Of a stretch of DNA of 32,000 nt, positions 5,302 through 32,000 are shown one piece after another. How positions within the stretch are numbered: position 1 is the stretch's first letter; each line of letters starts with the position of its first letter. Under the pieces are notes generated by a model. It was not told the origin of the DNA. It was given only the letters and a program-made list of their open reading frames with translations, and ran no database searches. Made by a program: the position numbers and the translations under genes. The DNA comes from an uncultured Chloroflexia bacterium (lineage in GTDB: Bacteria > Chloroflexota > Anaerolineae > Anaerolineales > Anaerolineaceae): contig OY969938.1 in NCBI GenBank assembly GCA_963704755.1, positions 3,210,001 through 3,242,000 of the forward strand, read 5' to 3'.

Positions 5302-6339
5302 TTAGCCAGCCTTGTCCTTGGGGGGGTTAGTTGAACCACGCACGACCAGTTCCGTAGGCAGTTCGACCCGGCCGATCTCTTTTTCGGGATATTTGAGTTG
5401 GTCAACCAGCACCTGGGTGGCAAGCCGTCCCATTTGCTCGAGCGGTTGGCGGACTGTGGTCAGCGCTGGGCGTACCATGGCTGCCTGGGGAATATCGTCA
5501 AAACCAAGGATCGAGATATCTTCCGGAACGCGTAAGCCACGGCTGCGGACCGCATCCATGGCCCCCATGGCCATCACGTCGTTGGATGCGAATATTGCCG
5601 TGGGCGGGTCGTCTATGTCCAACAGGGCGCTGGCTCCGGCATAACCATCCGGCTGAAAAAAAGTCCCTTCGTAAACCAGCCGGGGGTCCTCGGCAATGTG
5701 ATGGATACGCAGCGCCGATTGATAACCCTCTAATCGATCGATTGCGGCGCCCAGGTCCATCGAGCCAGTGATAAAGCCAATTCGAGTATGCCCAATTTTG
5801 ATCAGGTATTCGGTGGCGTTGTAGCCGCCCTGCCAGTTGGTGGCGCCAACCGCGGGGCATAGCTGGCCGGTACCCTGATGGTCAATGAGTACAAAGGGGA
5901 AATTTGCCTGGGAGAGCGTGTGGATGTAATCGGTGGGGTTGCGCGGCAGCACCAGCAGCAGGCCATCCACCATGCCCTGGACCAGGTTGGCCACGTAGTT
6001 GGCCTCTTTACTGGCCGTCCGGTGGGTGGTGAACAGCATAATATCCAACTGGTGCAGAGCCAGTTCGGTGTCGATGCCGTGAATGATTTCCCCGATATAC
6101 CCGGTCCCCAGGTCCGGCACCAGCATCCCAATGACGTTGGTTTTACTGCCCTTCAAGCTGCGCGCCTGGCGGTTGGCCACGTAATTCATCTCGCGCATTA
6201 CTGCTGAAACGCGTTCACGTGTTTCGGGCGCAACGTGGACGTCGTTGTTGATTACACGCGAAACCGTACCGAGCGATACCCCGGCTTTTTCCGCAACTTC
6301 TACGATGGTTACTCTTGAAACGGTGTTTTGTTTGCTCAT
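5302..6339 (-). CDS. LacI-family transcriptional regulator
   Basis: N-terminal HTH VTIVEVAEKAGVSLGTVSRVINN, then a periplasmic-binding-protein-like sugar-binding core. 345 aa. Confidence 0.93.
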   Translation of the reverse strand: MSKQNTVSRVTIVEVAEKAGVSLGTVSRVINNDVHVAPETRERVSAVMREMNYVANRQARSLKGSKTNVIGMLVPDLGTGYIGEIIHGIDTELALHQLDIMLFTTHRTASKEANYVANLVQGMVDGLLLVLPRNPTDYIHTLSQANFPFVLIDHQGTGQLCPAVGATNWQGGYNATEYLIKIGHTRIGFITGSMDLGAAIDRLEGYQSALRIHHIAEDPRLVYEGTFFQPDGYAGASALLDIDDPPTAIFASNDVMAMGAMDAVRSRGLRVPEDISILGFDDIPQAAMVRPALTTVRQPLEQMGRLATQVLVDQLKYPEKEIGRVELPTELVVRGSTNPPKDKAG

Positions 6340-6343
6340 ATCG

Positions 6344-6357
6344 TGGAAACGTTACCA
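6344..6357. promoter_or_regulatory. Imperfect LacI-type operator abutting the lacI start codon
   Basis: TGGAAACGTTACCA is palindromic at 12 of 14 positions, has a central CG, and lies 5 nt upstream of the ATG at 6339. Confidence 0.45.
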
Positions 6358-6489: not shown

Positions 6490-6505
6490 ATGGAAACGTT
6501 TCCAT
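6490..6505. promoter_or_regulatory. Perfect 16-bp LacI-family operator
   Basis: ATGGAAACGTTTCCAT is a perfect palindrome with the TGnAAnCGnTTnCA architecture of LacI/CcpA-type sites. It lies immediately downstream of the predicted -10. Confidence 0.7.
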
Positions 6506-6506
6506 A

Positions 6507-6535
6507 ATAGTAGCAAAGTTTATCAACGGAGTCAA
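6507..6535 (-). promoter_or_regulatory. Sigma-70-type promoter for lacI (and probably the downstream ABC/GH3 genes)
   Basis: Minus strand reads TTGACT (comp. 6530-6535), a 17-nt spacer, then TACTAT (comp. 6507-6512). The operator follows directly. Confidence 0.6.
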
Positions 6536-6603
6536 GTAGTTGGGAGAAAATTTAACAAAGGAATATGGGTTTTGGTGGAATGGTTTTATGCAAACGCGAA
6601 CGA

Positions 6604-6842
6604 CCAGGGTCGTGGGTAGCTTTGGACGTTTGGATTGGGTAGCTCGGGTTTCCAAACCCGAGAAAACGCCGGACGGGCATATTCTCGGCTGTGCAATCGA
6701 GCCTTGCCAAAAGAGAGACCCACGCAGGTGGGTCTTTGTGCTTTCGTAGGTGCAGCTTTAGCTGCCGCCGGTCAGGTGACAAGCCTGGTTTTCGATCGCA
6801 GCGATGCGTAAACCAAACGTTTCCCCGGCTTCGAAAGCCGGG
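6604..6842. repeat. Tandem structured repeat, unit A (~239 nt)
   Basis: Shares about 85-90% identity by eye with units B and C. Contains hairpins CTCGGGTTT-CC-AAACCCGAG, AGACCCAC-GCAG-GTGGGTCT (6716-6735, followed by TTTGTGCTTT), GCAGC-TTTA-GCTGC and CCCGGC-TTCGAAA-GCCGGG. Confidence 0.9.
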
Positions 6843-6995
6843 TTCCTGACCCGATTTGCCGGTCTTCAGGCCAATTTAAGAATCCCCCACCCCCCTTGGG
6901 AAGGGGGCAAGAAACGGCGATCTATTCCGTAAGGGGTCGGGGTGATTCTTTGCGCTGGCCAGAGTGCAGCTTCGAAAGCCTGGCTACAGGAGAGA
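6843..6995. repeat. Spacer containing a decayed fourth repeat unit
   Basis: GCAGCTTCGAAAGCCTGGCTAC (6966-6987) is a degenerate copy of the unit-terminal CCCGGCTTCGAAAGCCGGGCTAC. The spacer also has a CCCCCTT-GGG-AAGGGGG hairpin. Confidence 0.5.
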
Positions 6996-7234
6996 CCAGG
7001 GTCGCGGGTAGCTTCAGGCGTTTGGAACGGGTAGCTCGGGTTTCCAAACCCGAGAAAACGCCGGCCGGGCATATTCTCGGCTATGAAATCGGCTCTCGCC
7101 AAAAGAGAGACCCACCTGCGTGGGTCTTTGTGCTTTCGTAGGTGCAGCTTTGGCTGCCGCCGGTCAGGTGACAAGCCTGGTTTTCAACCGCGGAGATGCA
7201 TAAACCAAACGCATTCCCGGCTTCGAAAGCCGGG
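6996..7234. repeat. Tandem structured repeat, unit B (~239 nt)
   Basis: Same architecture as unit A. The loop of the second hairpin is the reverse complement of A and C (ACCCAC-CTGC-GTGGGT, 7108-7127). Confidence 0.9.
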
Positions 7235-7245
7235 CTACGGGGGAT

Positions 7246-7483
7246 CAAGGTCTCAGGTAGCTTTAGCCGTTTGGATTGGGTAGCTCGGGTTTCCAAACCC
7301 GAGAAAACGCCGGATGGGCATCATCTTGGCTGAGCAATCGGCCCTTGCCAAAAGAGAGACCCACGCAGGTGGGTCTTTGTGCTTTCGCAGGTGCAGCTTT
7401 AGCTGCCGCCGGTCAGGTGACAAGCCTGGTTTTCAACCGCAGCGATGCATAAACCAAACGTTCTCCCGGCTTCGAAAGCCGGG
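7246..7483. repeat. Tandem structured repeat, unit C (~238 nt)
   Basis: Same architecture, with a 1-nt deletion near the 5' end relative to A and B. It ends 24 nt before the GH2 stop codon. Confidence 0.9.
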
Positions 7484-7506
7484 CTACGAGTTGCCTGCCA
7501 CGCGAC

Positions 7507-10051: not shown

Positions 10052-10069
10052 TTGAAAATTGTTTTTCAA
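10052..10069. promoter_or_regulatory. AT-rich palindrome just upstream of the GH2 RBS (candidate operator)
   Basis: TTGAAAA-TTGT-TTTTCAA. It lacks the central CG of the 6490 LacI site. Confidence 0.3.
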
Positions 10070-10090
10070 TACAATACAGATGTAACTATA

Positions 10091-10147
10091 TCCGGAAAAT
10101 GAGGTGTTGGTGCTGGCAAAGCCAGCACCAACACCTCATTTTCCGGA
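10091..10147. repeat. Long perfect palindrome H1 (27-bp stem, AAA loop)
   Basis: TCCGGAAAATGAGGTGTTGGTGCTGGC-AAA-GCCAGCACCAACACCTCATTTTCCGGA, with no mismatches. Confidence 0.95.
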
Positions 10148-10159
10148 TCAGTCACTCCC

Positions 10160-10168
10160 TGCTATAAT
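10160..10168 (+). promoter_or_regulatory. Extended -10 promoter (TGCTATAAT) placing the TSS on the mntA ATG (leaderless)
   Basis: TGnTATAAT at 10160-10168 and ATG at 10175, 6 nt after the -10. There is no room for an SD. Confidence 0.55.
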
Positions 10169-10174
10169 TTATCT

Positions 10175-10660
10175 ATGGACGCAGCGGAATTGAGCGCAAA
10201 GTTGGAAGTTATCCTGGCGGATTTCCCGGAAATTGGCCTGGTTTACCTGTTCGGGTCGCGGGTCAGCGGGCAGGTAGGGCCGCTCAGCGATTATGATTTT
10301 GCCATCCTGACTGAAAACCCGCAAGACGAACTGGACCTGCAAGCCCGCTTCCAGTATGCCCTGGTGCGCATCTTGAATACCGACCGGGTGGATGTGGTGC
10401 TCCTGCAGCGAGCCCCGATCGAACTGGCCTACCGCATTATTGCCGATGGGAAATTACTCTATCAGAGGGATGTGTATACCCGGGTTGAATTCGAGGCGGA
10501 TACCCTCAGCCGATATGGGGATTATCTTCCGGTACTGCGTTCCCAACGGGAACAAATCCTGCGAGGAGACACGAATGACCGACGAATTCAGCGGTATAGA
10601 GAGGCGCTTGGACGAACTCGACGAACGCTTGGCCAGGATAAACTCCCTAAAAGGTCATAG
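10175..10660 (+). CDS. mntA: Nucleotidyltransferase-domain antitoxin (MNT, MntA-like)
   Basis: The minimal NTase motif LFGSRVSGQVGPLSDYDFAI matches GSxxxG...DxD. 161 aa. It overlaps the downstream HEPN gene by 86 nt. Confidence 0.8.
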   Translation: MDAAELSAKLEVILADFPEIGLVYLFGSRVSGQVGPLSDYDFAILTENPQDELDLQARFQYALVRILNTDRVDVVLLQRAPIELAYRIIADGKLLYQRDVYTRVEFEADTLSRYGDYLPVLRSQREQILRGDTNDRRIQRYREALGRTRRTLGQDKLPKRS

Positions 10661-11000: not shown

Positions 11001-11024
11001 AAAGCTTTCACCTGATGATTTTGA

Positions 11025-11081
11025 TCCCGAAAATGAGGTGTTGGTGCTGCCTTTGTCAACACCAACACCTCATTTTCGGGA
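11025..11081. repeat. Palindrome H2, a diverged paralogue of H1 (21-bp outer stem, imperfect apex)
   Basis: TCCCGAAAATGAGGTGTTGGTG...CACCAACACCTCATTTTCGGGA. The outer CCGG/CCGG of H1 is replaced by CCCG/CGGG, a compensatory pair. Confidence 0.9.
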
Positions 11082-11093
11082 TCAGTCACTCCC

Positions 11094-11102
11094 TGCTATA
11101 AT
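11094..11102 (+). promoter_or_regulatory. Second copy of the extended -10 promoter (TGCTATAAT), leaderless for fpg
   Basis: Same 28-nt ATCAGTCACTCCCTGCTATAAT context as at 10148-10168. The ATG at 11109 lies 6 nt after the -10. Confidence 0.55.
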
Positions 11103-11108
11103 CTATTT

Positions 11109-11945
11109 ATGCCAGAGCTACCTGAGCTCGAAGTGGTTCGTGAGGTGTTGCAGCGCCGGGTGATCGGGGATACGATTACGGCCGTGGAAGTCATCCCACC
11201 GGGCGGGCCGATCGTGATCCGCGACCTCACCCAGGTTGGTTTCGTTCCGGCCCTGGTTGGGGGGACCATTCAGGAGATATCGCGGCGGGGAAAATTCCTG
11301 ATCTTTGGCATGCAAGCTGAGACGGCGCCGCTTTACCTGGTGCTCAACCCTAAGTTGACCGGCCGCTTGCAGTTGGCAAGCGCAGGCGAAAAGCGGCGTG
11401 GCAAGACCCACGTGGTTTTTGGCCTGAGCAGCGGCAAACAGTTGCGCTACATCGATCAAAAGCAGATGGGCCAGCTTTATCTCACCCGCGACCTGGAGAT
11501 CGTGCCCGGGTTTGCCGGGATGGGCCCCGAGCCGCTGGATATCTCACTGGAAGAGTTCCGTGCGCGCTTGAAGCCCTTCCGCGGCGAGATCAAGGGGGTG
11601 CTCACCCGCGGGGAGTTTGTGGCCGGGATAGGCAACGCCTATGCCGATGAGATCCTGTGGGAGGCGCGCTTGCATCCCTATCGCAAGCGCACCCAGTTGA
11701 GCGCCGAGGAAGTCGCCCACCTGTACGAGGGCATGCGCACCACCTTGCTGAACGCGGTCGAGCAGGTGCGGGTGGAGATGGGCGAGAACATCCACCTCAA
11801 GCCGCGCGATTTTCTGGCCGTGCATATGAAGACCGGCGAGCCCTGCCCGCGCTGCGGTACGCCGATTTCGCTGGTGGGGGCTAACCAGCGCATCACCAAT
11901 TTTTGCCGCACCTGCCAGCCGGGCGGGTTGATCAAGGGGATGTGA
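11109..11945 (+). CDS. mutM: Formamidopyrimidine-DNA glycosylase (Fpg/MutM)
   Basis: N-terminal MPELPELEVV (catalytic Pro2/Glu3), H2TH region, and C-terminal zinc finger CPRCGTPISLVGANQRITNFCRTCQ. Confidence 0.93.
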   Translation: MPELPELEVVREVLQRRVIGDTITAVEVIPPGGPIVIRDLTQVGFVPALVGGTIQEISRRGKFLIFGMQAETAPLYLVLNPKLTGRLQLASAGEKRRGKTHVVFGLSSGKQLRYIDQKQMGQLYLTRDLEIVPGFAGMGPEPLDISLEEFRARLKPFRGEIKGVLTRGEFVAGIGNAYADEILWEARLHPYRKRTQLSAEEVAHLYEGMRTTLLNAVEQVRVEMGENIHLKPRDFLAVHMKTGEPCPRCGTPISLVGANQRITNFCRTCQPGGLIKGM

Positions 11946-14031: not shown

Positions 14032-14071
14032 TTTGAATGTTTTTTACAACAATCCCATTTCGGAGCAACAA

Positions 14072-14881
14072 ATGAAAATTATTGGGGAGAAGATCAACGG
14101 CACCCGCAAGTTGGTGGGCAAGGCCATTGCCGAGCAAAATGCTGCCTTTATCCAAAACCTGGCCGTCAGGCAGGTCGAAGGCGGCGCCAACTGGTTGGAC
14201 GTCAATGCTGGCACTGCTCCTGAGCGCGAGGCCGATGATATGGTCTGGCTGGTGAAGCTTGTCCAGGAGGTCACCGACGTTCCTTTATGCCTGGACAGCG
14301 CCAATCCCACGGCGTTACGCCTGGCGATGAAGGAAGTCAAGCAAACACCGATGATCAACTCGATCAGCGGTGAGCCCAGCCGCCTGGAAGGCATTTTGCC
14401 GATCGTGGCCGAATTCCATTGCCCGGTCATTGCCCTGTGTATGGATGAAAATGGCATTCCGGTGACCACCGAGAAACGGCTGGAAGTCATCCGCAGCGTG
14501 ATTGCCAAAACCCGGGCAGCCAACATTCCCGATGAAATGGTCTATGTCGATCCGTTAGCCATGACGATCGCCACCAATACCAACGCCGGCCGGGTGATCT
14601 TCGATACCATCCGCGAAATTCGCCGGGAGTTCCCCGAGGCGCACATTAGCTGCGGCCTGAGCAACGTTTCGTTTGGCCTGCCGCTGCGGTCGCTGATCAA
14701 CCGCTCTTTCCTGGTGTTGGCCCTGGAGGCCGGCCTGGATACGGCCATCATCGACCCGAACGACCGGGATTTGCAGGCGGCGATGTACGCGGCCGAGATG
14801 CTGTTGGGCAAAGACCGCCATTGTTTGAACTACACCCGTGCTTATCGCGCCGGCCGGTTAGAGCACCCAGAACAAAAATAG
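14072..14881 (+). CDS. Methyltetrahydrofolate:corrinoid methyltransferase (pterin-binding domain, MT II/AcsE/MetH-module-like)
   Basis: The ORF-track start 14033 (TTG) lies upstream of the predicted TSS. ATG 14072 has GGAG 6 nt upstream. Motifs DSANP, MINSISGE and GLSNVSFG are typical of the pterin-binding TIM barrel. Confidence 0.85.
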   Translation: MKIIGEKINGTRKLVGKAIAEQNAAFIQNLAVRQVEGGANWLDVNAGTAPEREADDMVWLVKLVQEVTDVPLCLDSANPTALRLAMKEVKQTPMINSISGEPSRLEGILPIVAEFHCPVIALCMDENGIPVTTEKRLEVIRSVIAKTRAANIPDEMVYVDPLAMTIATNTNAGRVIFDTIREIRREFPEAHISCGLSNVSFGLPLRSLINRSFLVLALEAGLDTAIIDPNDRDLQAAMYAAEMLLGKDRHCLNYTRAYRAGRLEHPEQK

Positions 14882-14972
14882 CGCGGCGATTTAATCCCGC
14901 AATACTTCTGTACCATCGATGAAATAAAACCCTCTCGTATCCACATTTATGTTCGCGAATAAGGAGAAAAAC

Positions 14973-15605
14973 ATGTCGGAAAAGCTTGTAAATGCAATTG
15001 CCGAGATGGACGATGAGCAGGCGATAAACCTGGCCAAAGAACTGCTCGCCCAAGGCACCGATCCCATGGAAGTTCTGGCGGACTGCCGGAAGGCCATGGA
15101 AATTGTTGGCAAGCGTTTTGAGAACGGCGAATATTTCATCTCCGAGCTAATCCTGGCCGGCGAAATGCTCAAATCCATTTCAGCAGAAGTCAAACCCCTC
15201 GTCAAGCAGGAAGAAGAGGCCAAAACCGGGGGCAAGGTTTTGATTGGCACCGTCAAGGGTGACATTCACGATATTGCTAAAGATATCGTCGTGTTTATGC
15301 TGGACGTCAATGGCTTTGGGGTCAAAGACCTGGGAATTGATGTCTCCCCAGAGACCTTCGTCGAGGAAACAAAAAGCTACCAGCCGGATATCGTTGCGCT
15401 CAGCGGTTTCCTGACGCTGGCATATACCTCCATGAAAGAGACCGTAGACGCCCTTACGGCGGCCGGGCTGCGCGATAAAGTGAAGATCATGGTCGGCGGG
15501 GGTACGGTGGATGCCCAGGTTTGTGCTTTTGCAAATGCCGATGGTTGGGGCACGGATGCCATGACGGCTGTGAGTTTAGCCAAGCAGTGGACAGGAGCGA
15601 ACTGA
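14973..15605 (+). CDS. Corrinoid (B12-binding domain) protein, copy 2
   Basis: ATG 14973 is preceded by AAGGAG. DxHxxG is present as GDIHDIAK. It is about half identical by eye to copy 1 across the Rossmann domain. Confidence 0.88.
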   Translation: MSEKLVNAIAEMDDEQAINLAKELLAQGTDPMEVLADCRKAMEIVGKRFENGEYFISELILAGEMLKSISAEVKPLVKQEEEAKTGGKVLIGTVKGDIHDIAKDIVVFMLDVNGFGVKDLGIDVSPETFVEETKSYQPDIVALSGFLTLAYTSMKETVDALTAAGLRDKVKIMVGGGTVDAQVCAFANADGWGTDAMTAVSLAKQWTGAN

Positions 15606-15606
15606 G

Positions 15607-16896
15607 ATGACCGAGATGAGTTCAACAGTGGCAACGATTGATGCGGGCAAGAGCCCAGAGCAGTTGTTAAACGAGCGCATGGCGCGTTTTATGGCCGCAT
15701 TGCAGCTCAAAGAGCCCGATCGTGTTCCGATTATGTTGGGTATGGGCTATCTGCTGGCCGAATACGGTGGAATCACCCGCCAGGAACTGCAGGATAACCC
15801 GGAAAAGGCCCAGGAAGTACTCGAAAAAGCCGCCAAAGAATTTCAACCGGATATGGCGTTCGGTGTATTTGGCCTGGGGCCAAAGGCCAGCCTGGCCGTT
15901 GGCGATCAGATGACTAAATGGCCTGGCTACGGATTGGGCCCGAACGGCTCCTTCCAGTTCAATGAGCAGGAATTCATGAAAGGCGAAGATTACGATGCCT
16001 TTTTGGAAGATCCTTCGGACTGGGCTATTCGCACTTACCTGCCACGGGCCTTTAGTAAAATGGGCGGACTGGCACAGATCCCTCCGATGGGAATGTTCCT
16101 GTTCGGCTTCTACCACCTGGCGAACTTTGCTGCCTACGCTGCGCCTCAGGTGGTAGAAGCATTGAAAGCGTTGGGCGAGGCCGTCCAGGTGACCGCGGAA
16201 GGGTTGGGTCTCCTGATCAAATCGACCAACAGCCTGGCCGCCCTGGGCTTTGCCCCGCCTTTCTTTATGTCAGGCGCCTTGATCGAAGCACCTTTCGACT
16301 TTATGTCCGACACCCTGCGCGGTATGCGCGGCATCTTCCTGGATATGCACCGCCGCCCGGAGAAATTGATCGCAGCGCAGGAAAAGGTACTCAAATTCCA
16401 GGTGGAGTTTGCGATCAATCAGGCCAAAGCGACCAACATCCCCTACGCATTCATCCCGCTGCACCGTGGCTCAGACGGTTTCATGTCGCTGCCGCAGTTC
16501 GAGAAGTTTTACTGGCCGGGCCTGAAATCCATGATGGTGCAATTGATCGAGAACGGCATCACCCCGGCCGTGTTCTACGAAGGGGTATGGGATCAGCGCT
16601 TGAAATACCTGGCCGAACTGCCGGCGGGCAAATCGGTGGGCTGGTTCCAGAGCAGCGATATCTTCAAGGTCAAAGAGGTTCTGGGAGATACCCTGTGCAT
16701 CATGGGCGGCATGCCCAACTCGCTGCTGCAAGGCGGTACGGCCGAGCAGGTGCGCGAACGCACCCGTGAGCTGTGCGAGAAGGTCGGCAAGGGTGGCGGC
16801 TTCATCATGAGCACGGGCATCGGCGAACTGGAAGGCTGCGATCCGAAGCTGGTCAAAGTTTGGATGGACGCGACCAAAGAGTTCGGCGTATATTGA
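15607..16896 (+). CDS. URO-D-family methyltransferase (substrate:corrinoid methyltransferase, MT I-like)
   Basis: 429 aa, with the start overlapping the stop region of the corrinoid protein (AGGAG 8 nt upstream). It has uroporphyrinogen-decarboxylase-like TIM barrel features. It lacks the H-x-C zinc motif of MtaA/MtbA-type CoM methylases (the equivalent region reads IPLHRGSDG). Confidence 0.7.
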   Translation: MTEMSSTVATIDAGKSPEQLLNERMARFMAALQLKEPDRVPIMLGMGYLLAEYGGITRQELQDNPEKAQEVLEKAAKEFQPDMAFGVFGLGPKASLAVGDQMTKWPGYGLGPNGSFQFNEQEFMKGEDYDAFLEDPSDWAIRTYLPRAFSKMGGLAQIPPMGMFLFGFYHLANFAAYAAPQVVEALKALGEAVQVTAEGLGLLIKSTNSLAALGFAPPFFMSGALIEAPFDFMSDTLRGMRGIFLDMHRRPEKLIAAQEKVLKFQVEFAINQAKATNIPYAFIPLHRGSDGFMSLPQFEKFYWPGLKSMMVQLIENGITPAVFYEGVWDQRLKYLAELPAGKSVGWFQSSDIFKVKEVLGDTLCIMGGMPNSLLQGGTAEQVRERTRELCEKVGKGGGFIMSTGIGELEGCDPKLVKVWMDATKEFGVY

Positions 16897-16939
16897 TCTT
16901 TAAGAGCTGGCCTTTCCTTTTACCAGGCCAGCAATTGCT

Positions 16940-16980
16940 ACGTGCGGTCCTTTTTAGGGGAGGACCGCACGTTTGTTTTC
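16940..16980 (+). terminator. Intrinsic terminator after the MT I gene
   Basis: ACGTGCGGTCCT-(9 nt)-AGGACCGCACGT is followed by TTGTTTTC. It is preceded by a second hairpin, GCTGGCCT...AGGCCAGC (16906-16932). Confidence 0.6.
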
Positions 16981-17030
16981 CGCGAAGGTATTGAAAATGC
17001 CGCGATTCAACACGCTCTCTTCTATTCCGC

Positions 17031-17059
17031 TTGACAGCCGGCTTGCGGCGATCTACACT
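17031..17059 (+). promoter_or_regulatory. Promoter TTGACA-17-TACACT upstream of the activator gene
   Basis: TTGACA at 17031-17036 and TACACT at 17054-17059, read directly. Confidence 0.5.
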
Positions 17060-17106
17060 TCCTTGTAGTTTGTTCCCGGTTTAAGTCCCAAAGGATATGA
17101 CCCTGG

Positions 17107-18966
17107 ATGACCGACAAACCTTCAACGACAAAATTCACAGTAGATTTTGAGCCGCTGGGTAAGCGGGTGACCGTGCCACAGGGGGCGACGCTGCTGGATG
17201 CGGCCCGCCAGGCCGGGCTACCCCTGACCTCCGACTGCGGCGGAGCGGGAACCTGTGGCCAGTGCCTGGTTATTGCCCGTGAAGGGAGCAATGCCCTCAG
17301 TGCAGCTAACCTGGTCGAACAGGCTGTGCTCACCGCAGAGCAGCTTGGGGCGGGTTACCGCCAGGCCTGCCAGGCCGAGGTGCTGGGTGACGTAAAAATC
17401 GATGTGCCGGTGGCCTCGGTGATCACTGCCCAGCGTTTGCAGGTCGAATCGCGAGCTGCCGAGCCGGCTGTGCCCGGTACCTTCGACGACCTGGTCGTGC
17501 AGCCTTACCGGGTCAGCCTGGTGCCGGCCACCCTGGCCGACCTGCGCGGCGACCTGGAGCGGGTGTTGGATGCCCTGGCAGAGGAGTACCAGCTCAGCGG
17601 CTTGACGGCCGGACCGGCCGCGCTGCGGGCCCTTTCGCCCCTGCTGCGCCAACAGGATTGGCAGGTTTTGGTATTAGTCCGCGGGCGGGAGATCGTGGGC
17701 TTCCTGGCCCCGGGTGCGCGGCCGCTGGGCCTGGCGGTGGACCTGGGGACGACCAAGGTGGCTGCTTACCTGGTGGACCTGGTGAGCGGGGAAACCCTGG
17801 CCGCCGAAGGCCGGCCCAACCCGCAGATCGGTTACGGCGAAGACTTGATCAGCCGCCTGGCCTATGCCATCCGCAAGACGGACGGCGAAAGCACCCTGTC
17901 CGGGGCGGTCTACACCACCCTGGGCGAACTGGCTCGGGAGCTGGCCGGGCGGGCCGGCGAACCGGTGGAGCATATCGCTGAAGCCTGTATTGTGGGCAAC
18001 ACCGCCATGACCCATTTGCTATTGAATTTGCCCATATACCAGTTAGCCCTGGCGCCCTACATCCCAGCCACGGCCATGCCGCAGGAAGTCCGCACGGCGG
18101 AGATGGGCCTGAATTTCGTCAGCGACGCGCGCGTGCACGTGCCGGCCTGCGTGGCCGGTTTCGTCGGGGCCGACCACGTGGCTATGGTCCTGGCCAGTGA
18201 TATCGACCGCGAGAACCGCACGGTATTGGGGATCGACATTGGCACCAACACCGAGATCGTCCTTTCCCGTGCAGGGACTTCCCGTTTGGTCTCGCTTTCC
18301 TGCGCGTCCGGGCCGGCCTTCGAAGGCGCGCACATTCACGCCGGGATGCGCGCCGCAGCCGGGGCCATCGAGCGGGTCTGGCTGGATGGCGGCAGCCCGA
18401 CCGTGCAGACGATCGACCATGCGCCGGCTGTGGGCATTTGCGGTTCGGGTATCATCGATACGGTGGCCGAGCTGCACCGCCTGGGTATCATCAACATGCG
18501 CGGGCGGTTTCAAGCTGGGGCGGCCGGCGTGCGGCCGGGCCACGGCGAACTGGAATATTTGCTGGTCCCGGCTGAACAAAGCGGCAGCGGCGAGGACATC
18601 ACCATCACCCAGCACGACGTGGACGAAATCCAGTTGGCCAAAGGCGCCATCATGGCCGGCATCCGCGTGCTGCTGGAGGTGTGTGGGCTGACCGTCGAGG
18701 ACCTGGACGAGGTTATCCTGGCCGGGGCTTTTGGCACTTACCTGAATCTGGAGACGTCCATTGCCATCGGGCTCTTACCGGATCTGCCCCTGGAGCGTTA
18801 CCGCCAGGTGGGCAATGCCGCCGGAGATGGCGCGCGCCAGATCTTAGTCTCGCGGGCCGCGCGCGAACGGGCGGTCGAAATTGCCCGGCGGATCGAATAT
18901 GTGGAGCTGACGATTTACCCGGGCTTTGCCCGTATTTATGCTAAATCCATGTTACTTAACGGTTGA
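17107..18966 (+). CDS. Reductive activator of corrinoid-dependent enzymes (RACE/RACo-like: 2Fe-2S ferredoxin + ASKHA ATPase, COG3894)
   Basis: The N-terminal plant-type ferredoxin motif is CGGAGTCGQC. The remainder (LAVDLGTTKV..., GIDIGTNTE...) has the actin-like ATPase fold (DUF4445). Confidence 0.85.
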   Translation: MTDKPSTTKFTVDFEPLGKRVTVPQGATLLDAARQAGLPLTSDCGGAGTCGQCLVIAREGSNALSAANLVEQAVLTAEQLGAGYRQACQAEVLGDVKIDVPVASVITAQRLQVESRAAEPAVPGTFDDLVVQPYRVSLVPATLADLRGDLERVLDALAEEYQLSGLTAGPAALRALSPLLRQQDWQVLVLVRGREIVGFLAPGARPLGLAVDLGTTKVAAYLVDLVSGETLAAEGRPNPQIGYGEDLISRLAYAIRKTDGESTLSGAVYTTLGELARELAGRAGEPVEHIAEACIVGNTAMTHLLLNLPIYQLALAPYIPATAMPQEVRTAEMGLNFVSDARVHVPACVAGFVGADHVAMVLASDIDRENRTVLGIDIGTNTEIVLSRAGTSRLVSLSCASGPAFEGAHIHAGMRAAAGAIERVWLDGGSPTVQTIDHAPAVGICGSGIIDTVAELHRLGIINMRGRFQAGAAGVRPGHGELEYLLVPAEQSGSGEDITITQHDVDEIQLAKGAIMAGIRVLLEVCGLTVEDLDEVILAGAFGTYLNLETSIAIGLLPDLPLERYRQVGNAAGDGARQILVSRAARERAVEIARRIEYVELTIYPGFARIYAKSMLLNG

Positions 18967-18986
18967 ATTGATCCTAGAGGAATTTT

Positions 18987-19655
18987 ATGGATTACACGCG
19001 AACATTGGTGCTGGCCTGCGCAACGGTCATCGAAGAAATGGAACCGCTCATGCCGCCCGGCATGCCGCACGAGGTCTTCGACTTCGGGCTGCATGTCAAT
19101 CCCGGTGAGCTGCGCAGTACCTTACAGGAAGCCATCAATCGGGTGGGGGACGAGATCGACACGATCATCCTGGGGTATGGGTTGTGTTCCATGGCGGTGA
19201 TCGGGATCAAAGCGGAGCGCCAAACCCTGGTCGTTCCGCGGGTGGATGATTGTATCTCTATTTTCCTCGGCTCTCGCGGGGCATACCAGCAGCAAGCTCA
19301 TGCGGAACCGGGTACGTATTACCTGACCAAGGGCTGGATCGAAGTAGGCGACACGCCTTTTTCGGATTACGAGCACATGGTGGAGCGCTACGGCCCGCAG
19401 CGAGCCGAGCGCATCATGAAGATTATGCTGGCCAATTACACCCGCGTAGCGCTGATCGATACCGGCCAATATGCGTTGGACTATTACCGTGATTATGCCC
19501 GCCGCACGGCAGCCCGTTTCAACCTGCGCTTCGAGGAGATCCCCGGCTCGAACGATCTGGTGCGCAAAATGATTTTCGGCCCCTGGGACGACGCGTTTGT
19601 GGTGGCGCCACCGGGCGAGATGATTAGTTACGGTATGTTCTTTCCGGGGGAGTAA
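18987..19655 (+). CDS. DUF1638-domain protein (function unknown, corrinoid-cluster associated)
   Basis: 222 aa, with RBS AGAGGA. I recognise the sequence as resembling the DUF1638 family. Three Cys lie in conserved-looking contexts (LACATV, GLCSMA, VDDCIS). Confidence 0.6.
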   Translation: MDYTRTLVLACATVIEEMEPLMPPGMPHEVFDFGLHVNPGELRSTLQEAINRVGDEIDTIILGYGLCSMAVIGIKAERQTLVVPRVDDCISIFLGSRGAYQQQAHAEPGTYYLTKGWIEVGDTPFSDYEHMVERYGPQRAERIMKIMLANYTRVALIDTGQYALDYYRDYARRTAARFNLRFEEIPGSNDLVRKMIFGPWDDAFVVAPPGEMISYGMFFPGE

Positions 19656-19658
19656 GAT

Positions 19659-19711
19659 GAGGTTTCGTGTGTTTTTGTGCCACTTTGTGGCACAAAAACA
19701 CACGAAACCTC
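19659..19711. repeat. Long perfect palindrome H3 (25-bp stem, TTT loop)
   Basis: GAGGTTTCGTGTGTTTTTGTGCCAC-TTT-GTGGCACAAAAACACACGAAACCTC, starting 4 nt after the DUF1638 stop. Confidence 0.95.
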
Positions 19712-21171: not shown

Positions 21172-21228
21172 TTTGAGTGTGTTTTTATTCGTGGCGGCGC
21201 AGCCGCCACGAATAAAAACACACTCAAA
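21172..21228. repeat. Long perfect palindrome H4 (27-bp stem, GCA loop)
   Basis: TTTGAGTGTGTTTTTATTCGTGGCGGC-GCA-GCCGCCACGAATAAAAACACACTCAAA. It shares the GTGTGTTTTT core with H3 and is nested inside the 10-bp inverted repeat TTCGGGATAA (21157-21166) / TTATCCCGAA (21246-21255). Confidence 0.95.
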
Positions 21229-21272: not shown

Positions 21273-21313
21273 GGGATATATTTGTGCTGGCAAAGCCAGC
21301 ACAAATATATCCC
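21273..21313. repeat. Perfect palindrome H5 (19-bp stem, AAA loop)
   Basis: GGGATATATTTGTGCTGGC-AAA-GCCAGCACAAATATATCCC. The apex GTGCTGGCAAAGCCAGCAC is identical to the apex of H1. Confidence 0.95.
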
Positions 21314-25629: not shown

Positions 25630-25676
25630 AAAATAGGGTGTATGCCGGGGCTTTGCCCCGGCATACACCCTATTTT
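25630..25676. repeat. Perfect palindrome H7 (22-bp stem, TTT loop), terminator-compatible at the end of the cob operon
   Basis: AAAATAGGGTGTATGCCGGGGC-TTT-GCCCCGGCATACACCCTATTTT, 20 nt downstream of the cobU stop. Confidence 0.9.
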
Positions 25677-25695: not shown

Positions 25696-26271
25696 CTATT
25701 TAAACTGCATGGGCAGGCCGGCGACCAGGAAATAGACTTCGTCCGCCTGGCGGGCCAGCTCCTGGTTGGCGCGGCCGATCAGGTCGCGATAGGCGCGACC
25801 CAGGTCGTAGGCCGGGACCAGCCCCAGGCCGACCTCGTTGGAAACCACCAGGATGGTCACGTCCTGGCTGCGGACGTACTCGACCAGGGCGGCGATATCG
25901 GCGCGGACGGCTGCTTCGATGGCTTCGTCGAACGGGTCCGCGGAAGGCGGGCCGAAGGGATCGTCCAGCGGGGCGGAGGCTTCCATCAGGTAATTCGAGA
26001 TCAACACCGTCAGGCATTCCAGCAAGATGACGTCCACATCCGCGTCGAGTGCGCGGATGGCCTGGGCTACCCGGCGCGGCGCTTCGAGCGTCTGCCAGGA
26101 CGCCGGGCGGGATGCCCGGTGATTTTGGATGCGCAGGCGCATCTCGTCGTCTTTTGCTTCGGACGTGGCGACGTACAGCACCCGCTCACCGCCCCATTCG
26201 CGGGCTTTTTGCTCGGCGAAATTGCTCTTGCCGCTGCGCGCACCGCCCAAAATCAAAACCAGTTTTCCCAC
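25696..26271 (-). CDS. cobU: Bifunctional adenosylcobinamide kinase / adenosylcobinamide-phosphate guanylyltransferase
   Basis: GTG start with GAGGTG upstream. P-loop GGARSGKS. Length (191 aa) and sequence are typical of CobU/CobP. Confidence 0.9.
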   Translation of the reverse strand: MGKLVLILGGARSGKSNFAEQKAREWGGERVLYVATSEAKDDEMRLRIQNHRASRPASWQTLEAPRRVAQAIRALDADVDVILLECLTVLISNYLMEASAPLDDPFGPPSADPFDEAIEAAVRADIAALVEYVRSQDVTILVVSNEVGLGLVPAYDLGRAYRDLIGRANQELARQADEVYFLVAGLPMQFK

Positions 26272-26331
26272 GCTTCACTCACCTCAATTTCAGGAATTAT
26301 TGTAACTGCTCAGCCCAGCGGGGATGAAACC

Positions 26332-26385
26332 CGAATTTGATGTACGTGCGGGGGCTGCTCTGCCCCCGCACGTACATCAAATTCG
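26332..26385. repeat. Perfect palindrome H8 (24-bp stem, 6-nt loop)
   Basis: CGAATTTGATGTACGTGCGGGGGC-TGCTCT-GCCCCCGCACGTACATCAAATTCG. Confidence 0.95.
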
Positions 26386-26481: not shown

Positions 26482-26538
26482 CCTCGAATTATGGTTGGAT
26501 GAAGGCGCAACGCGCCTTCATCCAACCATAATTCGAGG
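26482..26538. repeat. Perfect palindrome H9 (27-bp stem, AAC loop)
   Basis: CCTCGAATTATGGTTGGATGAAGGCGC-AAC-GCGCCTTCATCCAACCATAATTCGAGG, 7 nt from the cobS stop. Confidence 0.95.
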
Positions 26539-28511: not shown

Positions 28512-29375
28512 CTATATCAGGCCGTTTATTTTGGGGTTTTTCGCGGGCTCGCCTTCCGCTATGAACATGGGATATTTGGAAGGGGTGGCGGCCGGTGAGG
28601 CCGAAAGGCCATCCGGTACGACCAGGGGGGTGCCGTACACCGGGTGAGGGACCACGATAGTGGGGATGTGATAGACCGCGGCCAGGTTTTCGCTGGTGAG
28701 TACGTCGCCGGGGTTACCAAGCGCGTATACGCTCCCCTCGGAAAGCAACGCGATCCGGTCGGCATACAGGCCGGCCTGGTTGAGATCGTGGATCACCATC
28801 AGCACGGCCCGGTTGGTCTCGACCGCCAGGTTGCGGACCAGGTTCAAAATTCGTGACTGGTGTTCGATATCCAGGTAGGAGGTTGGCTCGTCCAACAGCA
28901 GAACCGGTGTATCCTGGGCCAGCGCGCGGGCTAAAAGCACGAGCTGCTGTTCCCCGCCAGAAAGCTGGCCAATTCTGCGCTCGGCCAGGTCAGCGATGCC
29001 GACCTGTTCCAAAGCGGCGCGGACACATTTATGGTCCAGCGCGCTGGATTGGCCCAGCCAACTGAGATAGGGTGTCCGGCCCAGCAAGACGGTCTGGTAC
29101 ACAGTAAAGGTATCGGGAAGCGCATGCGCCTGGGGCACCACAGCCATAAAACGCGCCCGCTGGCGGAAATCCATGACGGTGAGGTCCTGGCCATTGACCA
29201 GGACCGTGCCCGAGCACGGTTTGAGAACCCCGCTGGTCGTCCGGATCAGGGTGGATTTTCCCGTCCCGTTCGGGCCAACGACCGCCAGCACTTGCCCGGG
29301 GAGAATGTCCAGGTTGAGGTCGTGTAAGACCAGGCGATCGTTATACCCTACGGAAAGCGATTGGATTTGAAGCAT
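28512..29375 (-). CDS. btuD: ABC transporter ATP-binding protein (FepC/BtuD type)
   Basis: Walker A GPNGTGKST, signature LSGGEQQ and Walker B LLLDEPTS. The cobalamin assignment rests on the riboswitch and cob context. Confidence 0.8.
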   Translation of the reverse strand: MLQIQSLSVGYNDRLVLHDLNLDILPGQVLAVVGPNGTGKSTLIRTTSGVLKPCSGTVLVNGQDLTVMDFRQRARFMAVVPQAHALPDTFTVYQTVLLGRTPYLSWLGQSSALDHKCVRAALEQVGIADLAERRIGQLSGGEQQLVLLARALAQDTPVLLLDEPTSYLDIEHQSRILNLVRNLAVETNRAVLMVIHDLNQAGLYADRIALLSEGSVYALGNPGDVLTSENLAAVYHIPTIVVPHPVYGTPLVVPDGLSASPAATPSKYPMFIAEGEPAKNPKINGLI

Positions 29376-29400
29376 AGCAAGGTTCCTTTTTCAGAACAAC

Positions 29401-30432
29401 TCAGTGGACACCAGAACCGGTCCGGCGCAGTACCCATAGAAAGAACGGCGCGCCGGCCAGGGCAGTCACAATGCCGACCGGTAATACCTGCGGCGAAAGA
29501 ACAACCCGCGCCAGAATATCGGCGAGTAATAGGGCGATAGCGCCTCCCAGGATCGAAAAGGGGATCAGCGAACGGTAGTCCGGGCCATGGATCATGCGGA
29601 CCACGTGTGGCACGATCAGGCCGATAAAGCCGATCAAGCCGGAAAAGGCCACGGCCGATGCGGCGGTCAGGGATGCGGCCAGAATCAGGATGAACTTGGC
29701 CCGTTCCACATGGATACCCAACTGCTGGGTTTGCTCTTCACCGAACTGCAAGACATTGAGGATGTGCCCGGAAAGGGTCAGCAGCACCAATCCCAGGGCC
29801 ACGTACGGCAGCATGGCGACCACTGGGTCCCAGCCCCCCTGGGTCGTGCCGCCGCCCAGCAGCCAGGAAAGCGCATGCTGCAGGTCGTTTTGCGAGCGCA
29901 GCATGAGGAACGAGGTCAAAGCAGAGGCGAAAGAGCTGATCGCCACACCTGCCAGGATCAGAGCGGTGGTGGGGAGGGCGTTGCCGACCCGGGCCAGTTG
30001 ATAAACCAGGAAGACCGTGAGCAGAGCCCCCAGGAAGGCCGCGGCCGGGATGGTATACATTCCCAGGACAGAATCGGACCAGTGCAGGGCGATGGCGAGC
30101 ACCGCGCCCAGCCCGGCCCCGGAGGCCACGCCGATCAAATAGGGATCGGCCAGGGGGTTACGGAACACGCCTTGATAAACTGCCCCGCTGCCCGCCAGGG
30201 CAGCCCCGGTCAGTGCGATCAGGAAGGCGTGCGGTAAGCGGATTTGGTAGATGATCGCCGAGAAAGTGGATGGCCAGTCCTGGTGAACAATGCCCCCGAG
30301 GCCCGCAAAGAGGATGCGAACCGAAGTTGCGGGAGGAATGAAGACGCTGCCGATGCCGACGCTAAGGATCAGCGCCAGCACCAGCAGGGCAATCATCAGG
30401 ATCAAAGACCGGACATGAAAGGATCTGGTCAT
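29401..30432 (-). CDS. btuC: FecCD-family ABC permease (BtuC type)
   Basis: The ORF-track start (30588) overlaps the binding-protein gene. ATG 30432 (MTRSFHVRSLILMIALL...) lies 13 nt after the btuF stop. Polytopic, FecCD-like. Confidence 0.8.
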   Translation of the reverse strand: MTRSFHVRSLILMIALLVLALILSVGIGSVFIPPATSVRILFAGLGGIVHQDWPSTFSAIIYQIRLPHAFLIALTGAALAGSGAVYQGVFRNPLADPYLIGVASGAGLGAVLAIALHWSDSVLGMYTIPAAAFLGALLTVFLVYQLARVGNALPTTALILAGVAISSFASALTSFLMLRSQNDLQHALSWLLGGGTTQGGWDPVVAMLPYVALGLVLLTLSGHILNVLQFGEEQTQQLGIHVERAKFILILAASLTAASAVAFSGLIGFIGLIVPHVVRMIHGPDYRSLIPFSILGGAIALLLADILARVVLSPQVLPVGIVTALAGAPFFLWVLRRTGSGVH

Positions 30433-30445
30433 CGGTTGGGGTCGA

Positions 30446-31471
30446 TTATTTGAACAAATCCGGGTGGAGTAGTTTGGCCATGGCTTCCAGGCCATCGACC
30501 AGGCGAGGCCCAGGCCGGCTGACCAGGTTGTCGTCGAAGGTGTACACCTGGTTCTGCTTGACGGCGGTAATGCCATCCCAACCGGCACGGGAGGTCACCA
30601 TCTCGGGGGTCATGGCCCCCCAGGTGGCATCGCCGAGCAGGATAATGTCGGGGTTCTCGACGATCAGGTCTTCGGTGCTGATCTGGGCCCAATCACCCGA
30701 GAGGGATGCGCCCGCGTTACGGCCGCCGGCCATGTTGATGACCGTATCGACGAACGAGCCCGGGCCGGCCGTCCAGGGCGCGGTCGGGTCGGTGCCATCC
30801 AATTCGTAGAAGACCAGGGGTTTCTGGTCATCGCTGAGCGAAGCCAGGGTCGTTTCGACGGCGTCCACACGGGCTTTGTAGCCAGCGACCAGCGCCTGGA
30901 CGGTGTTGGTGTGGCCGGTCAACTGGGCCACCAGGTCCAAATCATCGTACAGGCCGTTGAAGTCGGTCGGGTTGGGCACGACGAAAATGGTCAGGCCCAG
31001 GTCTTGGACAGCCTTGATCTGGTCGGCGGAGGTCAATTCGGCCGCCAGCACCAGGTCGGGCTGCAAGGCCAGGATGGCTTCCGTGTTCAAATCACTGTAA
31101 CCGCCGCCAATATCGGTGGCTGCGGCGGCTGCATCCGGGTAGTCCGAATACAAATCGCGGCCAACAACCTGGTCACCGGCGCCTACCGCAAAGAGGATTT
31201 CGGTCACGGACGGGGCTAACGAGACGATCCGCTGGGGCGCAGTGTCGAGGGTGACCTGCCGGCCGGCGGCATCCGTAGCGGTAAAAGGCCAGGCGGGTGT
31301 TTCAGTGGGACTGGGCAGTTCGGTGGGGGAGGCAGCGACGGTGGGTTCAGCCGTGGGCGCCGTTGTGGCTGCCGGTTCTATGGCGACTGTGGGGGCCGGG
31401 GTGGCCTGAGTGGCGCAGGCAGAGAGCAGAACGATCAGGATCAGGCCGGTAATGACGAATTTCTTGAACAA
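30446..31471 (-). CDS. btuF: Periplasmic-binding-protein family 8 lipoprotein (BtuF-like cobalamin/corrinoid binding)
   Basis: TTG start with GGAGG 9 nt upstream. Lipobox LLSAC plus an Ala/Thr/Pro linker. PBP type-2 (Peripla_BP_2) features include RIVSLAPSVTEILFAVGAG. Confidence 0.8.
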   Translation of the reverse strand: MFKKFVITGLILIVLLSACATQATPAPTVAIEPAATTAPTAEPTVAASPTELPSPTETPAWPFTATDAAGRQVTLDTAPQRIVSLAPSVTEILFAVGAGDQVVGRDLYSDYPDAAAAATDIGGGYSDLNTEAILALQPDLVLAAELTSADQIKAVQDLGLTIFVVPNPTDFNGLYDDLDLVAQLTGHTNTVQALVAGYKARVDAVETTLASLSDDQKPLVFYELDGTDPTAPWTAGPGSFVDTVINMAGGRNAGASLSGDWAQISTEDLIVENPDIILLGDATWGAMTPEMVTSRAGWDGITAVKQNQVYTFDDNLVSRPGPRLVDGLEAMAKLLHPDLFK

Positions 31472-31540: not shown

Positions 31541-31595
31541 CCCGAATTTGAGGTGTCTGTGGGGACGAAGTCCCCATAGACACCTCAAATTCGGG
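31541..31595. repeat. Long palindrome H12 (26-bp stem with one G:T/A:C position, GAA loop) in the operon leader
   Basis: CCCGAATTTGAGGTGTCTGTGGGGAC-GAA-GTCCCCATAGACACCTCAAATTCGGG. It lies between the riboswitch terminator and the btuF RBS. Confidence 0.9.
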
Positions 31596-31644: not shown

Positions 31645-31709
31645 AGGAACGACTTTCCTTAAAACAGGATACCGTTCCCAATTACCTTTCCGCGAGGCTG
31701 TGGGAACAT

Positions 31710-31857
31710 CGGTAGGGCGGGCGACCTGGCTCGTTTAATCGTATAAAACGATTAAACCTACAGTTGCGGGACAGCGTCGGACTTCGCCCAGTATTCACTG
31801 AGCGGCACCGACATCGCCATTAAACTTTCTCATCCGGGAGTAGAAGTACCCTGACCG
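31710..31857 (-). promoter_or_regulatory. Cobalamin (B12) riboswitch aptamer
   Basis: The minus strand contains the conserved core GCTGTCCCGCAACTGTAGG and a B12-box-like AGCCAGGTCGCCCGCC (12/16 to rAGYCMGgAgaCCkGCc). P1 closes as CGGT(C)AGGG/CCCTACCG. Position upstream of btuFCD-cobTSU fits. Confidence 0.75.
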
Positions 31858-32000
31858 AAGTTTCGATTTGTAACGATCAACTTTCAAGATATGACAATTG
31901 CTTACTTGCTTTGGGCAGGCGTGTAACACCTACAAACTTACTATACAGCAATCTGGCAGGAGAGTCTATCAGGAGAAATGCACATTTTTGTAAGGGTTTC

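Follow-up and report, generated by a model that had tools for sequence, protein, structure and literature searches.

A tandem array of a hairpin-rich, apparently non-coding element between a GH2 gene and a lacI gene in an uncultured Chloroflexota bacterium

What occupies the 1167-nt gap between a glycoside hydrolase family 2 (GH2) gene and a LacI-family regulator gene in an uncultured Chloroflexia bacterium? Both genes lie on the minus strand of contig OY969938.1 (GenBank assembly GCA_963704755.1), within a stretch of 32,000 nucleotides that was analysed as a whole (hereafter the window, with positions counted from its first letter). Three units of a hairpin-rich sequence and a truncated fourth occupy 76% of this gap. 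The repeat itself, its hairpins, the terminator-like and promoter-like sequences within it and its block-wise conservation are directly seen in the DNA, as is a diverged second locus in the same genome. The explanation that we favor, to which we assign a probability of only about 0.4, is that a lineage-specific, non-coding cassette for a structured RNA on the minus strand has undergone limited tandem amplification and would act as a terminator or small RNA (sRNA).

An initial annotation of this DNA, made from its letters, had placed a tandem array between the GH2 and lacI genes. The array is real and the flanking genes are as stated, with the unit bounds now corrected to 249 nt. Specifically, a direct-repeat search returned three copies of 241 nt at 6602-6842, 6994-7234 and 7243-7483 (89-92% identity), TRF reported a period of 249 across 6969-7488, and MAFFT aligned 6602-6850, 6994-7242 and 7243-7491 over 249 columns with zero gaps (88-90% identity). 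Because the alignment of units A, B and C contains no gap, the 1-nt deletion that had been assigned to copy C is absent; its start had merely been placed 1 nt late. The locus is arranged as follows, with strand given for the genes only.

5302-6339, minus strand: LacI-family regulator gene, downstream of the array on that strand
6602-6850: repeat unit A, 249 nt, aligned to B and C without gaps
6851-6939: spacer unlike the unit, with a small C/G-rich hairpin inside; its local alignment to the unit is no better than that of shuffles
6940-6993: truncated fourth unit, in which columns ~126-157 are fused to columns 226-249
6994-7242: repeat unit B, 249 nt, with the loop of hairpin 2 inverted
7243-7491: repeat unit C, 249 nt, ending 15 nt from the GH2 stop codon
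7507-10041, minus strand: GH2 beta-mannosidase-like gene, upstream of the array on that strand

Units A and B are separated by 143 nt, and the decayed copy first noticed there as a remnant at 6966-6987 can be extended to about 6940-6993. Positions 6969-6993 match the 3′ end of the unit at 22 of 25 nucleotides, and a weaker match (22 of 32) joins 6940-6971 to unit columns 126-157. The deletion junction carries a GCTT microhomology and falls between the loops of hairpins 3 and 4.

All four of the hairpins described earlier are found in each unit, and each hairpin string occurs exactly three times. The geometry of hairpin 4 and the loop of hairpin 2 required correction.

6643-6662, 7035-7054 and 7284-7303: hairpin 1, CTCGGGTTT-CC-AAACCCGAG, within the 36-nt invariant block of columns 36-71
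6716-6735, 7108-7127 and 7357-7376: hairpin 2, AGACCCAC-GCAG/CTGC-GTGGGTCT, with an A-tract and a T-tract on its two sides
6752-6765, 7144-7157 and 7393-7406: hairpin 3, GCAGC-TTTA/TTTG-GCTGC
6824-6842, 7216-7234 and 7465-7483: hairpin 4, CCCGGCTT-CGA-AAGCCGGG, 8 bp with a 3-nt loop

The units fold more stably than their dinucleotide shuffles on both strands (z = -2.65 to -4.04). Hairpin 1 is predicted on the plus strand with a probability of 0.70-0.96, and on the minus strand only if the RNA begins near column 73. Hairpin 4 had been likened to a tRNA T-loop, and this likeness is lost once the hairpin is seen to fold as 8 bp with the loop CGA rather than with a 7-nt loop; ARAGORN calls no tRNA or tmRNA, and the Rfam tRNA-Sec model matches the unit at 16.4 bits against a threshold of 47. 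The proposed long-range pairing between CGTTTGG and CCAAACG fares little better. Both 7-mers are present in all copies, but a long-range 7-mer complement of some kind turns up in about 70% of shuffled units too, so that the pairing does not exceed chance. Unit B does not form the helix; helix and hairpin 1 are each predicted on the plus strand in two to three of the three copies.

Hairpin 2 reads as a bidirectional site of the intrinsic-terminator type. Its flanks are invariant across columns 105-145 apart from the loop, which is GCAG in units A and C and the exact reverse complement, CTGC, in unit B, with the arms unchanged. This inversion in unit B (7108-7127) has the signature of template switching, a hairpin flip in one step at the DNA level. 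Such a flip should be neutral for terminator function, and in this respect it supports a terminator reading.

How have the three copies diverged? Substitutions are strongly clustered, as the distribution of the 37 variable columns among columns 1-241 demonstrates.

Columns 1-35: 10 variable
Columns 36-71: 0 variable
Columns 72-104: 12 variable
Columns 105-192: 6 variable, four of them the single loop flip
Columns 193-222: 9 variable
Columns 223-241: 0 variable

In three of these segments 29-36% of columns vary, and in the remaining parts about 0-2% do so (permutation P = 0.002-0.007 for the clustering). Not one of the 37 variable columns lies within the 62 stem columns of hairpins 1-4 (hypergeometric P ~6e-6), which bears out the initial impression of invariant stems with substitutions clustered elsewhere. 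Units A, B and C differ by no indel, and transitions are split almost evenly between the strands (12 versus 11). The variable segments have diverged by 17-30% between copies, and therefore the duplication is old. About 75 nt of invariant sequence is non-palindromic, which exceeds what a passive hairpin would require. Constraint seems to act on more than half of each unit: clustering without indels argues for constraint, and the retention of blocks in the second locus described below strengthens the case. Repeated block-wise gene conversion would be a less economical alternative.

Might the array nevertheless be a neutral relic of a duplicated GH2 terminator region, or a DNA-level array of palindromic protein-binding sites? 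In favor of these readings, homologues outside this genome, covariation and a strong promoter are all lacking, and palindromes of about 20 bp with fully invariant arms have the size of dimeric operators. We nevertheless judge this pair of explanations quite improbable. Neutral copies are hard to reconcile with a rate heterogeneity of more than ten-fold, with the lack of indels, with tandem copies that persist until their variable segments differ by 17-30%, or with the same blocks being retained in a diverged second locus. For protein binding, no candidate binding protein is known, and the four different palindromes of each unit would need several such proteins.

The unit is non-coding. Stops interrupt every reading frame in two or more copies, and third positions are not over-represented among the variable columns of the unit as a whole, in keeping with the earlier non-coding assignment; the in-frame stop reported in copy C is indeed present, as a TGA created by T>A at column 91. 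A six-frame translation of units B and C found no match among 5.8 billion protein clusters, and an exact look-up of ten array open reading frames (ORFs) found that none has ever been annotated. Two individual ORFs were considered and set aside: one of 58 amino acids on the plus strand, which has a stop in unit B and non-conservative changes in its N-terminal part, and one of 33 amino acids on the minus strand, from the other arm of hairpin 2, with at least eight radical changes in 12 codons.

Nor does the unit belong to an RNA or repeat family that we could recognize. At E <= 10, an Rfam search of the array region yields sub-threshold matches to single hairpins only. The best of these is c4-a1b1 (RF03163), whose short GGGUUUGG...CCCG hairpin resembles hairpin 1 on the minus strand; with 13.8-21.6 bits where the gathering score is 46.7, this resemblance to one small hairpin is at chance level. 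At the gathering threshold, the only Rfam match in the whole window is a cobalamin riboswitch elsewhere. A search with blastn in its distant mode found no match in plasmids and phages. A fragment of a miniature inverted-repeat transposable element or insertion sequence was rejected, given that the unit ends share just a 5-nt complement (GTAGC/GCTAC) and that nucleotide and translated matches are lacking. Among the readings in the initial annotation, then, a non-coding, hairpin-rich unit outside any Rfam family has held up, and the arguments from the T-loop and the long-range pairing have not.

Comparative sequence is scarce for this lineage. Proteins of the window are singletons at 90% identity, and the closest GH2 homologues are at most 60% identical, their named sources being Chloroflexota (Anaerolineae/Anaerolineales) metagenome-assembled genomes. 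Five close GH2 homologues (57-60% identical, on Chloroflexota metagenome contigs) have no LacI neighbor and only short 3′ spacers, and therefore offer no orthologous intergenic region for comparison. We also scanned 185,579 species genomes, together with metagenome and viral collections, for exact seeds. A 20-mer from hairpin 1 has no match in species genomes or viral contigs and one in metagenomes, the latter a chance occurrence inside an ftsA gene. A 19-mer from block 3 has three genome and two viral matches, none in Chloroflexota, and these too were taken as chance: one of them (L004) matches by nhmmer in the seed alone, and the others lie in unrelated lineages. For the two matches that were examined (L001 and L004), similarity is confined to the seed. 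Seeds from hairpins 2 and 4 have no match in viral contigs.

A relative was found by a different route. A profile built from three spurious minus-strand ORFs of the array was searched against 1.84 billion protein representatives and led to P0127, a "hypothetical protein" of 198 amino acids from the same genome as the array. In a tblastn comparison, P0127 aligns to the minus strand of all three units (E = 3e-10). Its segment VARLSKPGKRLV corresponds to translated hairpin 4 plus AAACGTTTGGTT, and its segment RQLKLHL..HKDPP.WVSL to translated hairpin 3, hairpin 2 and tail; the two share one frame through a 1-nt difference in spacing. Since these segments translate the hairpins of the unit, P0127 is a spurious ORF over a diverged paralogous element, a second locus of the unit family. 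A paralogous locus that exact-seed scans of DNA had missed was thus recovered from a spurious ORF in protein collections by way of a translated non-coding repeat, an approach that may serve in other cases as well.

The second locus retains hairpin 4 with CGTTTGG as well as hairpins 3 and 2. Its best-conserved block is hairpin 4 with the adjacent CCAAACG, and hairpin 2 and its tail are also kept, VSLLAR corresponding to VSLSAK. Conserved across the family are GTAGCCCGGCTTTCGAAGCCGGG...CGTTTGG, GCAGCTAAAGCTGCACCT and AAAGACCCACNNNNGTGGGTCTCTCT. A 28-nt block that is invariant in units A, B and C is not conserved there. The two genome seed scans had used blocks that this locus does not conserve, and hairpin 4 with CGTTTGG, or hairpins 3-2, would have been better suited. 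From amino-acid sequence only, we infer three further properties of the locus. An internal repeat of P0127 (RSGRSPDRARSST.VWHLH, 100 amino acids apart) points to at least two units with a period of about 300 nt; another perfect palindrome, GPKAFGP = GGNCCNAARGCNTTYGGNCC, would take the position of hairpin 1; and an additional hairpin-4-like module would be present. The earlier suggestion of a new repeat class gains support from a diverged, apparently also tandem, second locus in the same genome. The sequence family of the unit is new, and has so far been seen in this one genome; the kind of element is not new.

Other proteins returned by protein-level comparison were rejected. P0125, from contig L012, was considered as a homologue at a protein-level E of 2.7e-6, but its nucleotide similarity is limited to 11-mers whose relative orientation is wrong; P0126 and P0128 are repeat proteins with no relation to the array. 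L012 (JGI Ga0610559_086857) is itself of some interest in carrying, at 96-1536 and over nearly the whole contig, a tandem array with a 267-nt period, more than five copies and 76% matches, in which one reading frame runs without a stop through two or more units (P0125 spans two).

Which strand might be transcribed? The array starts 15 nt past the GH2 stop codon, on the strand of that gene, and hairpin 2 is called terminator-like on the minus strand in three of three units, with the tail CTCTTTTGGC. No other terminator was found between GH2 and the lacI promoter. A structured element in the GH2 3′ untranslated region (3′-UTR), as raised in the initial annotation, fits this position well, with a hairpin and U-tail on the GH2 strand in every unit, and the predicted fold of that 3′-UTR (7509 to 7345) forms hairpins 4, 3 and 2 (z = -3.05). 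Only one promoter-like site, weak and of the sigma-70 type, recurs in all units, likewise on the minus strand.

6681-6710, minus strand: promoter-like TTGGCA-18-GAGAAT, 9/12, directly after the U-tail of hairpin 2 (unit A)
7073-7102, minus strand: promoter-like TTGGCG-18-GAGAAT, 8/12, unit B equivalent
7323-7351, minus strand: promoter-like TTGGCA-17-CAAGAT, 8/12, unit C equivalent
6507-6535, minus strand: likely lacI promoter TTGACT-17-TACTAT with TG, 67 nt beyond the array

The -35 element of the recurring site overlaps the terminator U-tail, and its spacer, -10 element and start region coincide with the variable segment of columns 72-104. The invariant block that runs from column 71 to 36 opens at the predicted start, near column 73. 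A sigma-54 promoter was rejected on its GG-GC spacing of 14 instead of 12, and no promoter of the extracytoplasmic-function (ECF) type was apparent by eye.

These features suggest the following model, in which transcription and the strand it uses, the ends of the RNAs and their possible targets or regulatory roles are all inferred. Each minus-strand period would comprise an intrinsic terminator (hairpin 2 and tail UCUCUUUUGG), followed by a weak promoter of the sigma-70 type that overlaps this tail (TTGGCA, 17-18 nt, GAGAAT), and then a transcribed region of hairpin 1, CCAAACG, hairpin 4, CGUUUGG, an unpaired block of 28 nt, hairpin 3 and the next terminator. The GH2-proximal unit would end and protect the GH2 mRNA, internal promoters would give rise to one or two sibling sRNAs of about 220-360 nt, and the stack of terminators would shield an autoregulated lacI promoter from read-through. 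A tandem array of sRNA genes, as first suggested, is a plausible candidate description of the locus.

Autoregulation of lacI is likely for its own reasons. A perfect 14-bp palindrome, TGGAAACGTTTCCA, lies at 6491-6504 immediately downstream of the predicted lacI -10, and a copy with one mismatch lies at 6344-6357, which is 5-18 nt ahead of the lacI start codon (6337-6339). Through these likely operators the LacI-family protein would control its own gene. The window holds no further copy within three mismatches, and LacI operators inside the units were rejected, the two lacI-proximal sites being the only ones that match.

Several observations weigh against a cassette transcribed from the minus strand. 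The promoter-like site is a weak match, has a changed -10 in unit C and, as far as P0127 reveals it, does not look conserved in the second locus. The promoter of unit A would read into the lacI region and not into a terminator. A minus-strand RNA spanning a unit junction folds with z = -1.8, and its best fold lacks hairpin 4. No homologue is found outside this genome, and hence there is no independent sign of function. Covariation gives no support either: one compensatory pair (columns 25/219) was seen and was equalled in 178 of 500 shuffles, in a test that, with three sequences only and 40 of 44 tested pairs never varying, has no power. Finally, the substitution pattern leans toward the other strand. 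Two minor hairpins carry three one-sided changes that leave G-U pairs when read on the plus strand but A-C mismatches when read on the minus strand, paired cells amount to 99.2% on the plus strand versus 97.0% on the minus strand, and RNAalifold keeps eight one-sided changes on the plus strand versus one on the minus strand.

Could the plus strand then be the functional one, yielding a structured RNA of unit length that runs antisense to GH2 and lacI and stops at hairpin 2? The one-sided substitutions just given, and the prediction of hairpin 1 and the long-range helix on this strand in two to three of three copies, would agree with such an RNA. Yet no plus-strand promoter was found in the units or upstream of unit A, the counts are small, the same columns fit other readings, and unit B lacks the long-range helix. 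We regard a functional plus-strand RNA of this kind as very improbable.

A more serious competitor to the minus-strand cassette is a passive mosaic of palindromes comparable to repetitive extragenic palindromic (REP) sequences and bacterial interspersed mosaic elements (BIMEs). Such a mosaic would be low in copy number, specific to this genome and without its own promoter; the hairpins would work solely in RNA made by read-through, as 3′-end stabilizer or terminator, or would have no role, and it would have been amplified locally by slippage or recombination. The array is an extragenic cluster of imperfect palindromes at the 3′ end of a gene, with different palindromes in fixed order, both tandem and dispersed. 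Its modules look shuffled, judging by the extra hairpin-4-like module and the GPKAFGP palindrome that seems to stand in for hairpin 1 at the second locus. No promoter is convincing, and the loop flip and microhomology deletion speak of hairpin dynamics at the DNA level. There is also a precedent in E. coli REP325, a palindromic 3′-UTR element that both terminates and stabilizes (bioRxiv 10.64898/2026.03.23.713779).

Even so, a passive mosaic of this kind seems unlikely to us. The 32-kb window contains no further copy of the unit, and its approximately ten other intergenic gaps carry a different family of palindromes. Two invariant 19- to 20-mers are without a true match in the species genomes scanned. 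Divergence is non-uniform, with the non-palindromic invariant nucleotides noted above standing beside segments that differ by 17-30%, and no RAYT or IS200/605-type gene was present among the larger ORFs of the window that were scanned against Pfam.

One small ORF deserves separate treatment, because no other ORF of 15 codons or more keeps both its start and its stop in all three units.

6728-6811, 7120-7203 and 7369-7452, plus strand: 27-amino-acid ORF, GTG-GLCAFVGAALAAAGQVTSLVF(N/D)R(S/G)DA-TAA, columns 127-210, start and stop conserved in all units

The ORF is a candidate small hydrophobic peptide of doubtful reality. Its grand average of hydropathy (GRAVY) is about +1.0, with 12 of 15 residues hydrophobic and a polar C-terminal end, NRSDA. 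These values fit the heuristics by which tandem-repeat type I toxins were sought by Fozo et al. (2010; PMC2887945), namely an ORF of <60 amino acids, at least 10 of 15 residues from I, V, L, F, C, M and A, and a polar C-terminal end. Only 5-8% of 499 random small ORFs of the window are comparably hydrophobic. Of its seven variable columns, four are third positions, and the replacements (V/A, D/N, S/G) are conservative. Its codon-usage score is -0.09 to -0.14 per codon versus +0.46 +/- 0.24 for genes of the window, and its GC content at third codon positions (GC3) is 0.44 versus 0.72.

Is each unit perhaps a type I toxin-antitoxin (TA)-like module, tandemly amplified in the manner of ibs/sib or ldr/rdl? 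In such a module the plus strand would encode a 27-residue hydrophobic membrane peptide, and hairpin 2 would sequester its GTG start and purine-rich tract. Pairing of CGUUUGG with CCAAACG would close the mRNA from 5′ to 3′ end, and repression would come from an antisense RNA made off the minus strand as far as hairpin 2. The conserved ORF with its hydrophobicity and benign substitutions suggests as much, the G-U-compatible changes and long-range helix favor the plus strand that would carry the message, and the element is both tandem and dispersed. There are, however, considerable difficulties. The plus strand offers no promoter and a weak Shine-Dalgarno match, and codon usage and GC3 are unlike those of neighboring genes. 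Synonymous sites of the hydrophobic part are also invariant, and therefore coding is not needed to explain the conservation. Hairpin 2 and its U-tract would terminate plus-strand RNA ahead of the ORF as well, the C-terminal half of the ORF does not look conserved in the second locus, and no toxin family in Pfam or NCBIfam matches. A TA module is improbable for these reasons.

The comparison with established TA loci shows the same mixture. Like ibs/sib, ldr/rdl and zor/orz (PMC2887945, PMC3919570), which are repeats of 200-500 nt duplicated in one intergenic region and elsewhere, the units combine a small hydrophobic ORF with a polar C-terminal end, a start codon buried in a hairpin, and what would be a structured antisense RNA with terminator. 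Unlike those loci, the units have no toxin homology and no plus-strand promoter, and their codon usage is atypical. Against this background, a TA reading, if true, would to our knowledge give the first type I TA-like modules reported in Chloroflexota. We know of no type I system described in that phylum. For all remaining readings together we reserve only a trace of probability.

The favored minus-strand cassette has its closest parallels among tandem arrays of sibling sRNAs, such as LhrC1-4 of Listeria, PrrF1/PrrF2 of Pseudomonas, NsiR1 of Nostoc and AbcR1/2. As in those systems, units of about 100-250 nt are arranged head to tail with each predicted intrinsic terminator abutting the candidate promoter of the next unit, conserved blocks alternate with variable linkers, and extra copies exist elsewhere in the genome. 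A terminator-like hairpin with a U-tail is present on the minus strand of each of the three units. The array differs from them in having no sequence or Rfam relation to any, in a promoter that is weak and not well conserved, and in predicted RNAs (at least about 220 nt) that are longer than most siblings.

With REP/BIME elements and REPINs (PMC3333891, PMC3337134) the array shares an extragenic mosaic of palindromes at gene 3′ ends, tandem clusters, module variation between loci and, putatively, terminator and mRNA-stabilizer roles. It is unlike them in its unit of 249 nt with four unrelated hairpins (versus pairs of 35-40-nt REPs), in its two known loci (versus hundreds), in conservation that is block-wise rather than uniform, and in showing no RAYT gene among the larger ORFs of the window scanned against Pfam.

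If the cassette is transcribed as proposed, it would constitute a new lineage-specific family of sibling sRNAs or of RNA terminators or insulators in Anaerolineae-like Chloroflexota, a group in which regulatory RNAs are almost unstudied. It would also describe a sugar-utilization locus that separates an enzyme gene from an autoregulated repressor operon by a reiterated terminator stack. Its practical value is limited by the presence of the family in one genome and by nearest GH2 homologues that are 60% identical.

Other intergenic regions of the window have features of their own. Long perfect or near-perfect palindromes, with arms of 15-28 bp and an apex of 3-7 nt, occur in nearly every gap, specifically at 10090-10148, 11022-11084, 16940-16972, 19659-19711, 21172-21228, 21273-21313, 25630-25676, 26326-26385, 26482-26538 and 31541-31595. 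Several share outer arms (CCCGAATTTGAGGTGT / CCCGAATTTGATGTAC / CCGGAAAATGAGGTGT) around a variable, GC-rich apex. Most stand directly 3′ of stop codons, and this is so for most of the other genes in the window. Together they resemble a REP-like or terminator family that extends through the genome, and they differ from the array's hairpins. That so many genes here have a hairpin in this position counts in favor of the terminator reading of the array.

Two of these palindromes form part of an 88-nt cassette found at 10090-10177 and 11024-11111 (89% identical), in which the long palindrome is followed by CTGCTATAAT and, 7-8 nt on, by ATG. Because these ATGs are the start codons of a nucleotidyltransferase gene (10175) and of fpg (11109), both genes look leaderless and appear to have one promoter module in common.

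The cobalamin riboswitch, at 31700-31868 on the minus strand, scores 44.7 bits, above its gathering score, and precedes an operon for a periplasmic-binding protein, FecCD and an ABC ATPase (28512-31471). A corrinoid methyltransferase cluster at 14033-19655 comprises a pterin-binding MtrH-like protein, a URO-D-like protein, a RACo corrinoid activator and a DUF1638 protein, and CobU is encoded at 25696-26271. Lastly, the region upstream of GH2 contains the palindrome TTGAAAA-TTG-TTTTCAA at 10052-10069, which may be the operator of another regulator.

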